From contig CAIIXF020000001.1 in assembly GCA_903813345.2 (NCBI GenBank), forward strand, positions 434,001 to 498,000: a stretch of 64,000 nucleotides of DNA, written 5' to 3'. This stretch comes from Owenia fusiformis. Lineage: Eukaryota. Position numbers and translations under genes: made by a program. Shown here one piece after another: positions 6,331 through 56,267 of the stretch (the stretch's first letter is position 1; each line of letters starts with the position of its first letter). The notes beneath the pieces were generated by a model. It had not been told where the DNA came from. It did no database searches and saw only the letters and a program-made list of their open reading frames with translations.

Positions 6331-9300
6331 ATGGGTCTAGGATGTGGATCGAAAACAGCGAAGGGGTTCCTATTCGTCTTCAACATATTATTCTTCGTGA
6401 GCATTATTTCTGTCTATTTCGATATATATATATGGGTATCACTGGTGATACATTCGAAAATGGCATCACATTTATAAATACATATTTATTTAGAAATGTT
6501 TCATGTAATGTAGACAGTATATCCACAGAGGTATTCCTGATTCTTGACATTCAATTAGTTTTAACGCTAAATTCTGTATAATTAGCTATAGAATTTAGAT
6601 ACATGCGTATAACGACATTTTGATCTTAGGATTTGTCTTTCTGGTTTAAGGAAATTATATATTTGAATTTGCAGCTTTTGGGTGCTACAGCTCTGGGACT
6701 TGGTATCTTTGTCCTTGTTGACAAGGCTCAGCTGACCTATCTCACTAAGCTTGGAGGAGTAAACCAGGTATTTAGACTGTTTTTGATGATTAATTTATCT
6801 GCTTAAAAACAATATTGCATTGATCATCTCAATACATGAAATAAAAATATATTTTACTTCTGAAAAAATATTGTTTCACTTTTCAAAAGAGCAAAACAAC
6901 CGTGTCATACTTTTGAAATAAAAAACAACATGGTTTTTCATTTCAGAAAATATCATAATCAATATTCAATTACAATTCAAAATATAGTATATATTTTAGA
7001 TGACCCATATATGTAGAAAAGAGTGTTCGATTTATATGCTATGAATAGTTCGAATAAGTGTTAATACGATCTTTGTAATACTAATGATGTGGTGCAATCC
7101 ATGTAATAATGAGTTAACTGTCCACATATTTATTATGGGTTTACTACATGTTCTAAATCAACCCTCATATATTACGATTTTATTAAATGTTTTGAACCAG
7201 CTTTCGTGCACAGCGATTTAAATTCATGTTTTGTTCCACAGGTGGATGTTCCTGGATTACTCGAAACCTCCGCCTATGTTCTTATCGCTGGTGGGGGTCT
7301 GGTGTTCATCATTGGATTCCTGGGCTGTTGTGGCGCATGGAAAGAAGTTAGAGTTTTCCTCATAGTGGTAAGTTACTCAATACTTTTTGAATTCAGAAAA
7401 AGCAATATGGCCTGTCAACAGGAACACACCAGAGCCACAGAGATAATTTCTACTCTAGATTTTCCAAACCGATTTCCAATATCACTATAATCGAGTATTG
7501 TTTTTCCAGTATGCTATCATGGTGTTGCTGATTCTCCTGGCCGAGATAGGAGCTGGGGTAGTTGCCTTTTTATTCAGGGATAAAGTAAGTGAACTTAATA
7601 CACTGCCTTCCATTTGTTTTGCAATTGCAACTTGATGTTTTTATTGGATAGCATATCCAAACATGTTAATGTTTGAATCTAACCTTAATGACAATAGATA
7701 TTAATGGCAAATTGTAATACTATGTAACCTGTCGTTATACTTCAATTTGCATTTTAGGCGATAACAGAGTTGAAATCCTTCCTCAATGAGACCATCGTAT
7801 ACAAATACGAGGGGCAATTGACAACATCTGAACCGTTCTCTCTTGCCTGGGATCTTGCACACGTGACGGTAATGTTTTCCTTATAATGATATAATAATGA
7901 TAATCATAATAATCATTCATCTAATTTTTCATTTGTTTTGAATAATCATTCATATATTTCTTTATTTTTTTGAATAATCATTCATCTATTTCTTATTTTG
8001 TTTTGAATATCAATTATCAATTTCTTCATTTGTTTTGAACAATCATTCATCTATTTCTTATTTTGTTTTGAATATCAATTATCCATTTCTTCATTTGTTT
8101 TGAATAATCATTCATTTATTTCTACGTTTGTTTTGAGTAGTGACTCATCTATTTCTTCATTTGTTTTGAATAATCATTTATCAATTTCTTCATTCCTTTC
8201 AGTTTGACTGCTGCGGGATTAACAACTCTACAGATTTCGATGTTGCTTCGGCATGGAACAGATCATATACATTGACTACGAATAACATCTCTAGCACTGT
8301 AAACATGGTGATCCCACCCTCTTGTTGTCGGTTTACCGACAAATCATTATACCCCAGCAATATCGGCTCGTTGACATTCGTCAATGACACATGTCCCATT
8401 GCACCAACAACATCCAATTCATGGCTAAACACGGTAGGAACCCTAACGTCTATTTTTCATAAAAATGTAAATGTACAAAAATAATATACAAGGCCGAGAA
8501 TTAAACCATAACATTGTGATATATTTTGATTATATCCTTCCAGGGATGTTATCAAACCATTTATGACTTCGTCCTGCAGAATGCCTACATAATAATTGGC
8601 ATAATATACAAGGCCGTGAATCAAACCATAACATCGTGATATATTCTGATTATATCCTTCCAGGGATGTTATCAAACCATTTATGACTTCGTCCTGCAGA
8701 ATGCCTACATAATTATTGGCATTGGGATAGGAATAGGTGTTGTGGAGGTAAGTTCTATTTACATAATAATTGGCACTGGGATAGGAATAGGTGTTGTGGA
8801 GGTAAGTTATATTTACATAAGTATTGGCATTGGGATAGGAATAGGTGTTGTGGAGGTAAGTTCTATTTACATAATAATTGGCATTGGGATAGGAATAGGT
8901 GTTGTGGAGGTTAGTTCTATTTACATAGTTATTGGCACTGGGATAGGAATAGGTGTTGTGGAGGTAAGTTATATTTACATAATTATTGGCATTGGGATAG
9001 GAATAGGTGTTGTGGAGGTAAGTTCTATTCACATAATTATTGGCATTGGGATAGGAATAGGTGTTGTGGAGGTAAGTTCTATTTACATAATAATTGGCAC
9101 TGGGATAGGAATAGGTGTTGTGGAGGTAAGTTATATTTACATAATTATTGGCATTGGGATAGGAATAGGTGTTGTGGAGGTAAGTTATATTTACATAATA
9201 ATTGGCACTGGGATAGGAATAGGTGTTGTGGAGGTAAGTTATATTTACATAATTATTGGCATTGGGATAGGAATAGGTGTTGTGGAGGTAAGTTATATTT

Positions 9301-10833
9301 ACATAATTATTGGCATTGGGATAGGAATAGGTGTTGTGGAGGTAAGTTCTATTTACATAATTATTGGCATTGGGATAGGAATAGGTGTTATGGAGGTAAG
9401 TTCTATTTACATAATTATTGGCATTGGGATAGGAATAGGTGTTATGGAGGTAAGTTCTATTTACATAATTATTGGCATTGGGATGGGAATAGGTCTTGTG
9501 GAGGTAAGTTCTATTTACATAATTATTGGCATTGGGATAGGAATAGGTGTTGTGGAGGTAAGTTCTATTTACATAATTATTGGCATTGGGATAGGAATAG
9601 GTGTTGTGGAGGTAAGTTCTATTTACATAATTATTGGCATTGGGATAGGTATCGGTGTTGTGGAGGTAAGTTCTATTTACATAATTAGAGAGATTTCGCA
9701 CCTAGTGAAAGTACAACTTATAACGTATACTTATACTTATAGGTAAACGTACAAGGTGTTTCATAATGTGGGCATTTCGTCAGGAGAGATCTTCTCGGAC
9801 TGTAATAAATACAGGTCAAAGGGATGCCATTTGTACTTTCTTGAATTGTAGCATGTTTAGTTGATCCAAATGTGTTTGTCTAGAATAAAATAGGCTCGTA
9901 TATAGTACATTTGTTATAGACCCATCTCTTCTCAAATTGACTTTTTGGAGATGCTTGTTATGAAACACCCTGTATGTCATTTGTTGAGCTACTGAATGGG
10001 TCGTCTCCGGGAATTGCTAGAACCTACTGGTTTGATTCGTGTTTCAAATTGATGGTTAAAGTATTTGATTGGATACTGTTCCCACTCAGCCAATTAATTA
10101 AAAAAATGCTTGCGGTCAATTGTTCCACACACATGTAGGCAAATCTTTATACGGAGATCCAACTGTATACGTTATCATCTACGTAAATATACCGTTTTGT
10201 AAGTTCATTGAACTTATACTGATCATGAAAACATTGTAATAATCAACTTGTTTATGTAATGACTCACTTTAAAGAATCATGACTCACTTTAAAGGATCGT
10301 GTTTATAATACACTACAACTACAAGGACACGGAAGCAAGCATTTTATTATAATGTGCATAATCTACACGTGCAGATGACAGTGCATTCACAGGCTCTAGT
10401 TGATGGAGCTTTTCTATAACGGGAATAGTTATGTTCCATTAAGTACAATTTAAAATTGATTTTAGTAAATAAAATAGTTCGACATGACCCTTTAAACTAT
10501 ACGTATACGTATAAGTTGTACTTTCACTTATGTGCGAAATCTCTCTAATATTGGCATTGGGATAGGAATAGGTGTTGTGGAGGTAAGTTCTATTTTATTT
10601 TGACGAATAATTTAATATTTTAGTTGACGTAAACTTAGTCCTATTAGACATTCAAATAAAGATGTTGATGAATTGAGCAATCTTTACTTGTTCTCTTGAC
10701 TGAAATCATTTCATGTTTTATGCACTACTGGCTTGCTTGCTTGCAGATATCAGTTGTATTCGCTGCTTGTTATTTATCGAAAGCTATTCACAATTCAGCA
10801 GAATTTGAAGTTACAAAAGTTACCAACTTTTGA
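6331..10833 (+). CDS. Tetraspanin (6-Cys large loop). Coding exons 6331-6396, 6675-6767, 7242-7367, 7510-7584, 7758-7868, 8203-8433, 8664-8747, then last exon A 10747-10833 (~290 aa)
   Basis: MGLGCGSKTAKGFLFVFNILFF/LLGATALGLGIF (TM1), GFLGCCGAWKE, LLAEIGAGVVAF (TM3), FDCCG, PPSCC, GCYQTI, and TM4 YIIIGIGIGIGVVE/ISVVFAACYL. All introns are GT-AG phase 0 and all exon lengths are multiples of 3. Confidence 0.95.
7905..8195 (+). repeat. ~33-bp intronic tandem repeat (~8-9 units) abutting the acceptor at 8202
   Basis: The unit is roughly aataatcattcatctatttcttcatttgttttg and fills most of the intron. Confidence 0.85.
8482..8721 (+). repeat. 120-bp direct duplication containing the tetraspanin exon-7 acceptor
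   Basis: tatatccttccag|GGATGTTATCAAACCATTTATGACTTCGTCCTGCAGAATGCCTACAT occurs with the AG at both 8543 and 8663. Confidence 0.95.
8706..10595 (+). repeat. 54-bp minisatellite of the tetraspanin exon-7 donor: 18 contiguous units, plus one unit split by a MITE
   Basis: The unit is TACATAATTATTGGCATTGGGATAGGAATAGGTGTTGTGGAG|gtaagttctatt. Donors recur every 54 nt from 8747 to 9665, with another at 10582. Confidence 0.95.
9687..10547. mobile_element. Non-autonomous TIR element in the last unit of the donor array, with a nested Tc1/mariner-type MITE at ~9752-9972
   Basis: Outer TIRs tagagagatttcgcacctagtgaaagtacaactta and taagttgtactttcacttatgtgcgaaatctctcta. Inner TIRs ta-caaggtgtttcataa and ttatgaaacaccctg-ta. 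Confidence 0.85.
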
Positions 10834-11107
10834 GTTACATAATGAGGGTAGGGATTTATAACATAGGCATGGTTCAAACCTGAACGATTGACAAAATACC
10901 ATTGGAAATGTCACACGCCACTTTATACTTCTTAATAGTTAGATATTCTTTAAATACCTTCTGCACCATTCACTTAATTAGCCATAAGGATCTATTTTGT
11001 AAAATTATACAATTCTAGACAACTCAAAATATCTTAACTTGTATTTTAGGATAATACATCTCTTCTCAATTTATCAGCTTTTGCACATTCCTTTACCCTC
11101 ATTCTAG

Positions 11108-11218
11108 TTTGTTGGAGTCATATCAGCATTGTGCCTTGCTCATGCTATTAAAAAGGATAAAGACGAAGATTCAGTTACGGATCTCAGGAAGGCTGACCGT
11201 AGAGCGAGGCGACGGTAA
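11108..11218 (+). CDS. Tetraspanin candidate last exon B: FVGVISALCLAHAIKKDKDEDSVTDLRKADRRARRR*
   Basis: A pyrimidine tract plus ttctag acceptor at 11107. It is phase 0, homologous to the TM4 C-half (xxGxxxAxCLAxAI), and ends TAA at 11216-11218. Confidence 0.75.
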   Translation, partial: FVGVISALCLAHAIKKDKDEDSVTDLRKADRRARRR

Positions 11219-11936
11219 TTTTGAGTGAAACATGGATTGCTAAAATGTTGAAAAACGTGTATTAATAACAATGATTCATTAATACCCTGCTTTTGATTGC
11301 ATGCACTAACCACAGTAATCACGTGATCACATTGGTCTCCACGGATTGGCTGCATGTGGTCACGTGATTCTAAAAGTGTTACACACATCAAATGTAAATG
11401 GGAGTTTAAACTTGCATATAAAATCGAAACGCCAACCTATACGTATGACAAATCGCCCATACAAATGCATCGCTTAAATATTTTCCGTTGACGTTTAGGT
11501 TGTGAGGAACATTGCAAGCTTAAACTCCCTGTATGTATACTTTTAAAACATGCTTATAACCAAAATCACATTGTTTTGCTGCTTAACAATAATTGGCTTT
11601 ATCCCGTGGTGTTTGTCTGCATCATCCTCCAAATAACACGTCATGTCAGTCTTCTTTGTTTCTATTGCATCAAGTATGGTTTGATCAAGTGATGTAGCAA
11701 CACAATGCTCAAATTTACGGACGTCTCTCAGTTCAACGTTCCAACAATGTGGACGTTTTATACTCTCTTCTATAAGTTTGGCAGTCAGAAGTTCATCCTA
11801 GACTTTGGATACACCAATCAATGTTTGGCTATTTGAAAAAGTCACATATGTTTCCAAACTTTAGATCAGGAACAATATTAAGATTCAGACAATGAGAGAT
11901 TTGATATGCTAATCAATGGAAACTTCTGGTTGCCAA

Positions 11937-12655
11937 ACTTATGGAGGGAAGTGTATATCACTACATGTACCAATAGTTTGATTCGTATATCACATCACAA
12001 ATCTTATGGAGGGAAGTGTATGTCACTACATGTACCAATAGTTTGATTCGCATATCACATCACAAATCTTATGGAGGGAAGTGTATATCACTACATGTAC
12101 AAATAGTTTGATTCGTATATCACATCACAAATTTTATGGAGGGAAGTGTATGTCACTACATGTACCAATAGTTTGATTCGTATATCACATCACAAATCTT
12201 ATGGAGGGAAGTGTATGTCACTACATGTACCAATAGTTTGATTCGTATATCACATCACAAATCTTATGGAGGGAAGTGTATGTCACTACATGTACAAATA
12301 GTTTGATTCGTATATCACATCACAAATCTTATGGAGGGAAGTGTATATCACTACATGTACCAATAGTTTGATTCGTATATCACATCACAAATCTTATGGA
12401 GGGAAGTGTATGTCACTACATGTACCAATAGTTTGATTCGTATATCACATCACAAATCTTATGGAGGGAAGTGTATATCACTACATGTACCAATAGTTTG
12501 ATTCGTATATCACATCACAAATCTTATGGAGGGAAGTGTATATCACTACATGTACCAATAGTTTGATTCGTATATCACATAACAAATCTTATGGAGGGAA
12601 GTGTATATCACTACATGTACCAATAGTTTGATTCGTATATCACATCACAAATCTT
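11937..12655 (+). repeat. 65-bp tandem repeat (11 units) starting at a MITE right TIR
   Basis: atggagggaagtgta recurs at 11941, 12006, 12071 ... 12591. The first unit is the TIR end of the MITE at ~11763-11954. Confidence 0.95.
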
Positions 12656-12880
12656 GATCTAATCTCTTCTAATAAAGAGATTTCGTTATAATTATAAGTG
12701 AATCGAAGTTTGTCGTTTCACAAAAATACTCGTATAAGTATAGAAACGTATATTTCATATGATTCCGTACCAATAATAATTTATTATCGAGATAAGTACT
12801 CGTACACTTATAAACAACAAACAATGGCTCCGTGGATGGATAGAGCTGCGCGACAAGTGATGACAAAGTACACACACATT

Positions 12881-13415
12881 CACTGGTGATCCACTCGATT
12901 ACGCTGGTTACCGAAACGATTCGTTTTGGTAACAAAATGTCGGAACATCGAAGGTACGATTTTTCTTTTTTCCTTATTTCACACGTTGTAGGCAGAATTC
13001 CCACGACATTTTTAACACAAACGTGTATCAGTATCATATGTTTAAGAAAATGTACATATTTGCGAACAAATAGTTCAGAAGACAATAGAATCGTAGATTT
13101 AATTCCTCACTTAAGTTACATAAACGGTTTTTCGAAAAACAGTTAAGATCTGCACTTTTAACCCAAACCGTTTATGCAACTTACGTGAGGAATTAAGTCG
13201 ACGATTCAGTTGTCTTCTTAGCTATTTTTTCGCAAACATGTACATTTTCTATAACATATGATGCTGATACACGTTTGTGAGAAAAAACGTCGTTGGGATT
13301 CTGCCTACAACGCGTGAAATAGGGAAAAAAGAAAAATCGTACCTTCGACGTTCCGACATGTTGTTACCAAAACGAACCGTTTCGGTAACCAGCGTAATCG
13401 AGCGGATCACCAGTG
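12881..13415. mobile_element. Foldback element with ~250-bp inverted arms and CACTG...CAGTG termini (CMC/Transib-like)
   Basis: cactggtgatccactcgattacgctggttaccgaaac... mirrors ...gtttcggtaaccagcgtaatcgagcggatcaccagtg. The flanks are acatt and acctt, a possible 5-bp TSD with one mismatch. Confidence 0.85.
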
Positions 13416-13601
13416 ACCTTAAGCTTATAGACTATGTTATAAACATAAAATACGCTATAAGTGCGGTTGCGTAATCAATATATTGCTTTAAACCATTCAG
13501 TGTCAATGACTGTTGACGGATCAGTGTGAGATTCTGTAAATTATCTAGAAATATAGGGTGGTCCAAAAGTTGACAACGTATGAACCTCTTCTCTGTTGCA
13601 G

Positions 13602-13670
13602 ATAGTGGGAATCGTCGCAGCATGTTGTTTAGCAAGAGCAATCAAACAAAAAGAAAACGACGTCGTATAA
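13602..13670 (+). CDS. Tetraspanin candidate last exon C: IVGIVAACCLARAIKQKENDVV*
   Basis: Acceptor ctcttctctgttgcag at 13601. It is phase 0 with a canonical TM4 end and juxtamembrane Cys. TAA at 13668-13670 and AATAAA at 13876. Confidence 0.8.
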   Translation: MVGIVAACCLARAIKQKENDVV

Positions 13671-13993
13671 ATCATTACGAATCGACATATTAGAAACACC
13701 ACACAATTATTGGAAGATTTCTGGAGAGGACTAAAAGACAGGACTAAAAGGCATGAGAGTGACGTTATTATACAGTTAGCAAGTGTAACGCAGGCCTTGA
13801 GTTTATTGATTTTCTCCCTATATCATGACATGTATAATGTGAATAGTATCACGAACTACTTTTATTGGTGCCAAGAATAAAGAACGTTAATTACTAATTT
13901 ACGTAACTAAAGAAGTCAAGAACAAAGTACTAATGTAAACAAGAACCATTCAAGAACTAAGTACTATTATATATTGATACCGGTACTAATGTA

Positions 13994-15566
13994 CCAGGTC
14001 GTTTAATAAGTTCACGGAAATGCTCTCGTGTAAAAGATTTTTGATATTTTCTCATGAAAGGATTGGTATTGATATGATGAACTTTTTGAACACGCGTTTC
14101 TCTTAAACCAGTCACAGTCATAAAAAAATTCTGAAAATTTTACACATCGTCAATTTAATGGTCATATTTTGAATGGCAACAATATAATTTGAAAAAAATG
14201 TATATACTTTCCTCTATATTGTTTTAGACATTATACACCTCTTTTTCATGTTCTGAATGAAATGAAACATCTATCCGAGGCTCATTGGAACAAAACGATA
14301 TAAATACAACGTGTTTAGGTCTCTCAATATTGTAATTTTTTGAATACTTTTTGTTAAATCAACCAAAATTTCCTTTTTATAACTATAATAATAATATTGA
14401 GAGGTCTAAAAAATGTTGTATATGGTATTTTGTTCCAACAAATAAAGACATTTTATTTCATTCGCAAGAATTGGTAGAATAGAACAATAAACAATTGCAC
14501 TAAAAACAGTTAACAAAAGCAGTTATATAAAATAATATAAATAATTTTCGCATTAAATTGTTGTCAATCAGTCAACATTACATAAAGGACCGGTTTTTAC
14601 AGAATGTTTTCAATAATTGGTTTAAGAGAAAAACATTGCTGAATTCAGTTCACCATATCGATACCTATCCTATTCACATAATGTATAAACAATTTTTCAT
14701 TGATACTTAAAATTTGATTGGTCAAAAATAAAGGCCGTTGTCTTTCTAAATTACTCAAATTCAGATTCCGTTGTCATTGACGATATCGAAGACACTATAT
14801 TTTGGCGAATCACGACCCTCATATGATACATTATCACAAGAACTTAATGCATGCACAGAATTAGCGACGATAAAATCCCATGAAATGAGGACCAAGTGAA
14901 TAAACATTTGAAGCGACGGTTATGTCCGCCATTTGTGACAACGGTATCTGACTTTACCGTAGTCAGGGTATTCCGGTGTGATTCGGCCAAACTCTTTCTT
15001 TATGAACGGTCACATTGCTAATGTTGTACGGAAACCATTGCGCATAAGTAGCAAAATAGATGGCAACGCTGCCCCAAGTTTTTTTTAAATAGGATGAAGC
15101 ATCAACTAAGATGTGCACTTTTTAGAACAATGTAACAACTTTCAGTCCAGATCACGGCTATTCAAACAAGTTTTCCAGATGGCTTCAGAGTACAGTAACG
15201 ACAACGGGTTGAATGTGAGCGACTGTGATTTAAACATGAGTGAGAATATTTCGAACATCTTATAGGACAATATTTGTGACTTATATTTTAAGTTATTATA
15301 CCATGTACACGTAGAAAGCGGAGAAGAGGAAATGCATGTGATACATTCATAAATTTCCTACTATTTCTGTTGTATTCTAATGAATAATATGACGTAAAAA
15401 ATGCCCGCCTCCCTAAAAGTCAAGTTACCATAGTAAGCATTATTCTTGACCAATAAAATAAGAGATACTAATATTCAATGAATCAATTACAAAATATTTT
15501 TTACACATGTGAAAATTTCATGAGAAAATATCAAAAATCTTTCCGTAAATTTGTTGAACGACCTGG
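13994..15566. mobile_element. Non-autonomous TA-flanked DNA element containing a nested MITE (~14060-14670)
   Basis: TIRs ta-ccaggtcgtttaataagttcacggaa and ttccgtaaatttgttgaacgacctgg-ta. The same terminus recurs at ~53093. Confidence 0.75.
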
Positions 15567-55446: not shown

Positions 55447-56267
55447 TTAAGTCTAAATTACCATTAACCAGTTAGCAGTAATTGAAAGGGAAAACACGTT
55501 TGTTTTTCACAAGTGACATTCCACGAAGTGATAATAAAAATGAAATATTTGTTTATTATATCATGCCAAGTTCATCACTTTAAATGCTAGGGATTTAGTA
55601 ATAGGGAGGGAGGTTAAGCTACACGTTTTAGGAGAACATGTGCATGAACGTGTAGAATTATGGTTCTCGAAGTATTATTTCTTCCCTTCGTAGTAGCCAT
55701 TTGCCTTCTGCGATGTAAAGATAAAAGGTAAATAGTTGTAAGTAGGTCCATTGCTTAACCTCCCTATTGTAGAGATCAAAGCGTGTTTATAAATCCCTTA
55801 TGTTTTCAAGAGGAGCCATCACTTATTAAACGTTGTTTATAAGTGAGTGCACACTTATCTCGCTTAATCTAATTATTGATAGGGAATCATAGTATATTTG
55901 GCATATTACTTTCATATTACTATCCAATCTACCTATTAACAAGAATTTGGAGGAGAAATTTATTTATTTTCGGTGAAAATAACATTAGAATTGATCGATA
56001 AAATATACATTTCTATATGACTACATCAAATTTTATATATTCATACTTATTAACTATAAAGTATAGGTAGGGATTAACATAAGTTATGCTTTCACTTATG
56101 AGCGAAATCGTTTAGTCTTATGTTTACTTATAGACTGTGTCAATTACGTCATCATTAAACAGCTTAATCCATTCATAAGGAGGCATCGCTTATAAAACGT
56201 TGTTTATAGGTAAAATATTATCTTGGAATTTTGAATACACAATTTTGATGAAAAGAATTTTAGAAAT

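Follow-up and report, generated by a model that had tools for sequence, protein, structure and literature searches.

Two stop-carrying cassette exons and alternative C-terminal tails in a tetraspanin gene of Owenia fusiformis

Inclusion of KRAS exon 4A brings in a stop codon and leaves exon 4B as 3' untranslated region (UTR). As described in PMC9882654, 4A and 4B are two last exons joined by mutually exclusive splicing, which is a common fate of tandemly duplicated exons, and 4A was captured from NRAS. Tetraspanin tails are known to act in trafficking: the C-terminus of CD63 binds the PDZ protein syntenin-1, which regulates CD63 internalisation, and putative sorting motifs of the dileucine or tyrosine type are present in other tetraspanins (PMC5473022). 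Animal tetraspanins share six ancestral phase-0 introns, and the available portion of the same source mentions splice variants only for TSPAN14, TSPAN5, CD82 and TSPAN32 (PMC2650405). No description of alternative exons for the tail or for half of the fourth transmembrane segment (TM4) of a tetraspanin was found in the literature at the level of titles and abstract openings. A tetraspanin gene of the annelid Owenia fusiformis has such exons. It lies on the + strand of a 64,000-nucleotide (nt) stretch (assembly GCA_903813345.2, contig CAIIXF020000001.1, positions 434,001 to 498,000), referred to below as the window. Two stop-carrying exons, A and B, are optionally spliced in ahead of the last coding exon, C.

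Stop-carrying cassettes in an eight-exon gene

A preliminary description, made from the sequence alone, proposed a single tetraspanin gene with three homologous alternative last exons, each with its own stop. The three phase-0 exons, their acceptors at 10747, 11108 and 13602 and their quoted peptides were confirmed on the + strand, and all three occur in spliced RNA, giving three TM4 C-terminal halves and tails on a common extracellular loop. Exon A (10747..10847, 101 nt) encodes a TM4 half and a tail ending KVTNF, has TGA at 10831-10833 and is followed by a GT donor at 10848. Exon B (11108..11214, 107 nt) encodes a TM4 half and an acidic, then polybasic tail ending RRARRR, with a GT donor at 11215. 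The coding part of the terminal exon C (13602..13670) encodes a TM4 half and a tail ending ENDVV, then TAA. Each acceptor consists of a pyrimidine-rich tract and AG: ...cttgcttgcttgcag precedes ATA at exon A, ...ccctcattctag precedes TTT at exon B, and ...cttctctgttgcag precedes ATA at exon C.

RNA evidence comes from three stranded raw-read runs bearing the Owenia species label, X9, X10 and X11, of which about 6, 6 and 12 in every 100 were read. A fourth source, X1, consists of Logan contigs; the kind of run was guessed, yet spliced contigs are present. These four were taken from 14 candidate runs. RNA was mapped over 8100-14100, and 15 of the 22 joints are listed. In every read from the gene the first mate lies on the - strand, the outcome that a usual stranded library gives for + strand RNA. 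The joints that decide the architecture leave A and B. Exon A is spliced to exon C (10847>13602, GT..AG) by 4 reads in X9, 5 in X10, none in X11 and no contig in X1, and exon B is spliced to exon C (11214>13602, GT..AG) by 3 reads in X11, none in X9 or X10, and an X1 contig of depth 2492. Exon 7 is also joined directly to exon C (8747>13602, GT..AG) by 8, 13 and 16 reads in X9, X10 and X11, with nothing in X1 at that donor placement. The preceding joint, from exon 6 to exon 7 (8433>8664, GT..AG), has 11, 14 and 20 reads and an X1 contig depth of 5695.

A and B are thus internal cassette exons that carry a stop, with donors in use at 10848 and 11215, and the term "last exons" in the preliminary description holds for C only. 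Because A and B are both spliced on to C, the arrangement is an inclusion or skipping switch with one common 3' end. Read depth agrees with this arrangement. Mean depth is 10-15, 10-17 and 25-29 in the exon 6 bins of X9, X10 and X11, 1.42, 2.61 and 0.41 in the exon A bin (10713-10913), and 0, 0 and 2.93 in the exon B bin (11115-11315). In the bin after A (10914-11114), depth is zero in X9 and 0.75, or about one read, in X10; beyond B it is about zero except over dispersed repeats. Coverage therefore stops at the donors of A and B, where alternative last exons would each have a cleavage and polyadenylation site of their own. Past exon C, depth persists to 14100, the end of the mapped stretch.

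Usage differs between samples. Exon A is found in X9 and X10, exon B in X11 and X1, and exon C in all three raw-read runs. In two runs, between about a quarter and a third of the junction reads at the exon C acceptor come from the A-to-C joint; in the third, none do.

The coding outcome of each path was obtained by splicing in silico. Skipping both cassettes gives P0001, a protein of 284 amino acids (aa), inclusion of B gives the annotated protein P0063 of 298 aa, and inclusion of A gives a protein of 290 aa, with 14 nt between the end of its TGA and the A-C junction. The claim that each exon has its own stop stands for A (TGA) and C (TAA) but fails for B, whose genomic TAA overlaps the donor (CG/GTAA) and is removed with it. 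In the messenger RNA (mRNA) the frame instead reads CG plus A (Arg) and then a TAG at 13603-13605, supplied by exon C and beginning 2 nt past the B-C junction; the protein is the same as with the genomic TAA. As in KRAS 4A/4B, the alternative exons are homologous and adjacent, and inclusion of A or B ends translation and turns exon C into 3' UTR. A hypothetical mRNA holding both A and B would still encode the A form; the A-to-B joint (10847>11108) is absent among the 15 of 22 joints listed, where read numbers are small.

The C form is annotated as P0001 under CAH1772214 and CAH1772215, and the B form as P0063 under CAH1772216 and CAH1772217. The A form is in no annotated protein, and the 90%-identity cluster has just C and B members. 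Exon A is therefore the new element of this gene and also its weakest one. The gene model is corrected by adding a third isoform and by showing A and B as cassette exons, a modest gain given that two isoforms were already annotated and that the mechanism is well known in other genes.

The rest of the gene is well defined. The window has a base composition of about 35% G+C and is animal DNA. P0001, which is named Owenia fusiformis tetraspanin, maps on it as eight coding exons, AG/GT-bounded, all in phase 0 and 100% identical to the protein. Exon 1 (6331..6396) runs from Met to ...NILFF and a GT donor. Exon 2 (6675..6767) encodes the end of TM1 and the small loop and exon 3 (7242..7367) encodes TM2, both with AG and GT flanks; exon 4 (7510..7584) encodes TM3, and the large extracellular loop begins in exon 5 (7758..7868). 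All five match P0001 exactly. Exon 6 (8203..8433), 100% identical to P0001, contributes the CCG motif and the variable part of the large loop. Before 8202, 40 X11 reads have loose ends, read as spelling the end of exon 5, as an exon 5-to-6 joint would give. Exon 7 (8664..8747), which begins GC... and ends ...GVVE, encodes the N-terminal half of TM4, is common to all isoforms and is bounded by the joints 8433>8664 and 8747>13602. It ends at 8747 before GTAAGT, and all three alternative exons are entered from there in phase 0.

Membership of the family is clear for both annotated forms. P0001 matches Pfam PF00335 over its full length with 162.7 bits (profile positions 2-225 of 225) and P0063 with 160.3 bits (2-224 of 225), against a curated cutoff of 32.1 bits. 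C160-C161-G162, C198-C199 and C236, encoded by exons 6 and 7, are invariant in a 10-sequence alignment. No further tetraspanin gene or extra TM4-half exon was found in the window by tblastn, profile scan and 16-mer scan. One weak profile match at 55687 (E 0.14) was rejected, as it lacks an acceptor and is not near any other tetraspanin exon.

Taken together, it is probable that this eight-exon gene makes three isoforms by way of cassettes, in the following manner. The last coding exon would have been duplicated twice in tandem inside the preceding intron to give A and B, which would now be optional cassettes. Exon 7 would be spliced to C directly, or to A or B, which would then join C. Inclusion of A or B would swap the second TM4 half and the whole cytoplasmic tail, leaving extracellular loops that would be identical in all forms.

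Resemblance, relatives and competing readings

The resemblance of the three exons exceeds chance. When the first 16 residues of C were compared with all 48,785 stop-free 16-mers in six frames of the 64-kb window, 7 identities or more occurred solely in B (9/16) and A (7/16), each aligned in register with its acceptor. A and B share 5/16 residues with each other, and nucleotide identity to C is 28/48 for A and likewise 28/48 for B. Origin by exon duplication, as first proposed, remains the simplest reading of this in-register similarity. A TM4-segment profile was built from 129 other-species tetraspanins, those of 215 fetched that fit the extraction pattern, with the two Owenia sequences excluded. 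Against it, C reaches 19.3 bits, B 9.1 bits and A 5.7 bits. Over the 3,389 open reading frames of the window, C ranks first (E 3e-4), B third (E 0.37) and A outside the top 25. B and C are recognisable as family members, and A only through its likeness to C, its position and its RNA. Mean Kyte-Doolittle hydropathy of TM4 in 26-residue windows is calculated as 2.38 with C, 2.06 with A and 2.27 with B, values with which each alternative exon is predicted to complete a hydrophobic fourth helix.

RNA reads provide a small view of variation in these exons. Seven coding variants are listed, at 8229, 8388 and 8391 in exon 6, at 11142 and 11179 in exon B and at 13625 and 13655 in exon C, and six of the seven are synonymous by codon reading, a sample too small for a claim of selection. 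The sole non-synonymous change, 11142 A>G in exon B, replaces His with Arg and yields L-A-R-A-I as in exon C; the G allele accounts for all X1 depth at the site and for 1 of 5 reads in X11.

B-type and C-type tails are conserved in other species. The transcript-derived protein P0002, 72% identical to P0001, has a B-type tail that is acidic, then reads D-L-R and then continues as a run of arginines. In comparisons of its last segment, B gives a score of 92.5, C one of 65 and A one of 17. The other 11 tails compared are all closest to C, and C is therefore the ancestral type. A search of representative proteins with P0002 returned 3,560 matches at E <= 0.001. The best stretch extends past P0002 residue 287 in 1 of 150 proteins among the matches listed, and among 140 tails of the matches listed the polybasic run occurs in P0002 and P0063 only. 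A metagenome locus with 38% identity to P0002 residues 23-88, the sole locus in that scan, was dropped as too distant. No annotated alternative tails were seen in the clusters of the Owenia paralogues (P0218/P0074 and P0079).

Several observations weigh against a three-isoform gene, most of them against exon A. Three joints were expected from 8747; that to 13602 was found in the raw reads and that to 11108 in X1, where contigs run from the final 20 letters of exon 7 into 11108 at depth 747 and into 13602 at depth 906, but 8747>10747 is absent among the 15 of 22 joints listed. The X1 contigs place the donor at the copy at 9665, which is uninformative because those 20 letters occur in all copies of a tandem array described below. 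For the same array, reads from exon 7 to A would scatter, as short exon 7 anchors fit any of 19 donor copies; the acceptor of A is inferred from sequence, frame and exon-sized coverage. Raw-read junction support is thin, with 9 reads for A and 3 for B. The expected conservation in relatives was borne out for B and C but not for A: each of the 12 tails compared from other species is nearer to B or C. A comparison of the 53-aa stop-to-stop frame that contains tail A with proteins of 29-93 aa gave no homologue. The 5.7 bits of A correspond to E about 4 for 3,389 open reading frames, a score not separable from chance by the profile alone. In addition, the clusters of the Mytilus, Babylonia and Priapulus relatives contain one tail each, which means that the switch is not a general one.

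These points give most substance to the view that B and C are the only functional alternatives, and that A is either a duplicate in decay or sequence exonised by chance, spliced in as noise and yielding no stable protein. Of the three exons A has diverged furthest, by residue identity and by profile score; it is absent from annotation, has no relative with a tail of its type among those compared and no upstream joint among those listed. However, exon A is entered in phase 0 and still encodes an uninterrupted hydrophobic TM4 half in which the A-A-C-x-L-x-x-A-I pattern is kept; the mean hydropathy is 2.06, against 2.27-2.38 for B and C. The share of A in the junction reads at the C acceptor, sizeable in two runs and nil in the third, looks regulated and unlike uniform noise. 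Moreover, in vertebrates nonsense-mediated decay follows a rule of 50-55 nt between stop and junction, and by that rule neither the stop of A nor that of B is premature; the former is near enough to its junction to escape. Dismissal of A as noise is thus unlikely, though it keeps some force.

A second view takes A, B and C as alternative terminal exons, each with its own polyadenylation site, as the in-frame stop that each has in the genomic sequence might suggest. It is very improbable. RNA joins both A and B to C, the TAA of B sits within a donor in use, the 274 nt from the stop of A to B show no AATAAA or ATTAAA, and depth past A and past B is zero or about one read. It is equally hard to credit that A and B are "poison" cassettes that lower C output through premature termination and mRNA decay, for although each puts a stop ahead of the usual one, so that exon C is not translated, the stop of A lies 14 nt before the last junction and that of B after it, the B tail is kept as coding sequence in a 72%-identical relative, and A and B preserve a TM4-compatible half rather than arbitrary sequence.

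The three-isoform cassette arrangement remains the preferred reading. For the preliminary description as a whole, the observation is confirmed and the interpretation partly supported: the tail switch is real, and the functions given to the tails are suggested by their sequence.

Repeats in and around the gene

The donor of exon 7 is repeated in a tandem array. A 54-bp unit (54 base pairs, or 18 codons) is repeated 18 times in tandem at 8706..9687 on the + strand; each unit repeats, in frame, the last 36 nt of exon 7 and its GTAAGT donor. As a result, 18 almost identical donors follow one another between 8747 and 9665, and a 19th, orphan donor lies at 10582 in an array segment at 10549-10582. 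RNA depth is at most 0.06 in the bins of 8904-9506, so the array copies beyond the first few donors have no exonic coverage. The last array unit is interrupted by an inserted element (9688..10548, about 860 bp) that carries terminal inverted repeats of some 45 nt. Reads match this element on either strand, with a likeness of 95-99% and numerous fixed differences, and it therefore belongs to a transcribed dispersed family. In a bolder extension of the tentative proposal on recurrent tail switching made below, these 18-19 donor copies, in frame and situated between exon 7 and exon A, might help to regulate the choice of acceptor.

Other repeats lie close to the exons. A 120-bp duplication (two copies, 8481-8722) spans the acceptor and most of exon 7. 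Of the two resulting acceptors only the second, at 8664, is seen in RNA, with the 11, 14 and 20 reads given above; use of the first, at 8544, would hit a stop. A 33/65-bp tandem array (7908-8194) lies directly upstream of the exon 6 acceptor. Between B and C there are a 65-bp tandem array of 11 copies (11934-12655) and a foldback whose arms, 12880-13130 and 13165-13416, are 88-93% complementary and have RNA reads on both strands. In the 3' UTR, 67-94 reads per run that cover about 72 nt at 13769-13840 continue into unrelated flanks, with an agreement of 0.86-0.98. Since these flanks are consistent, the segment is common to another, more strongly expressed transcript, and local depth is inflated.

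A second array in the window is likewise seeded on a splice junction. At 587-1586, a 46-bp unit repeated about 22 times contains the 3' splice site (ttgctttcag) together with some 31 nt from the final coding exon of an upstream gene. That gene resembles a seven-transmembrane receptor; the repeated exon has ...NPVIY..., and the real acceptor is near 1551.

Tails and comparison with known systems

Membrane microdomains are organised by tetraspanins, whose short tails determine where these proteins and their partners go. The three tails of the Owenia gene differ in ways that could matter for this role. The C tail has 11 residues, with two adjacent cysteines, and ends D-V-V. The A tail has 17 residues, with one cysteine, and ends T-N-F. 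The B tail has 25 residues, with one cysteine, is acidic and then polybasic with a net charge of +4, and ends R-R-A-R-R-R. PDZ ligands of class I end in S/T-x-hydrophobic and those of class III in D/E-x-hydrophobic. By pattern, T-N-F of A fits class I and D-V-V of C fits class III, and these two tails may act as PDZ-type ligands. Runs of the R-x-R type are signals for endoplasmic reticulum retention or lipid binding, and the B tail might serve arginine-based retention or binding of lipids. Juxtamembrane cysteines of tetraspanins are palmitoylated, which makes the two cysteines in C and the one each in A and B candidate sites. The isoforms are presumably translated and would differ in trafficking or in partner binding. 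PDZ and sorting roles of this kind are read from the tail sequences. A constant outer face combined with a swapped inner TM4 half and tail amounts to a natural experiment, which lets the function of each tail be tested directly.

CD63 provides a precedent for a tetraspanin tail that directs trafficking, with one tail per gene, whereas the Owenia gene provides three by splicing. The G-Y-E-V-M ending of fish CD63 sequences is on none of the three Owenia tails, which are known from sequence. Lepidopteran CD63-like proteins in four species (Leptidea, Battus and two Papilio) also have isoforms, X1 and X2, that differ at the extreme C-terminus only. In these the last two or three residues change (SRY versus YA) and the TM4 half is not duplicated, unlike in Owenia.

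A closer case comes from the brachiopod Lingula anatina, whose "tetraspanin-18" (P0004; 49% identity to P0001) is the closest named relative outside Owenia. Its isoforms X1-X4, known from automatic RefSeq predictions (XP_013385774-79), are identical through ...AVVQ and then diverge into three TM4 C-terminal halves and tails, ending ...NLNEVV (X1/X2), ...GDEKDDD and ...GKEED. The X1/X2 tail ends E-V-V and resembles that of Owenia exon C. No paper found in the literature takes up these predicted isoforms. The Lingula TM4 halves are nearly identical to each other (LLGIIFACCLC...) and no tail is polybasic, whereas the Owenia halves have diverged. This near-identity points to separate, younger duplications in the brachiopod, or to homogenisation. 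The comparison allows a broader proposal, which is offered tentatively and may well be wrong: lophotrochozoans could repeatedly have come to switch tails through stop-carrying copies of the last coding exon, independently in an annelid and a brachiopod, with an A form in Owenia that is regulated, translated and equipped with a class I PDZ-type ending. If so, one tetraspanin would gain several trafficking fates through recurrent tail switching in this group.

The nearest mechanistic parallel is KRAS 4A/4B. Both genes have tandem related exons that provide alternative C-terminal ends, one of them polybasic, which govern membrane behaviour in KRAS and may do so in Owenia. They differ in protein family and in what is exchanged: KRAS chooses between two lipidated tails, whereas the Owenia gene chooses among three ends that each include half a transmembrane helix. 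They also differ in the source of the extra exons, since KRAS 4A came from NRAS, whereas Owenia A and B look like local duplicates. The Owenia gene neatly illustrates how exons duplicated in tandem, together with a stop codon, can generate C-terminal diversity without new polyadenylation sites.

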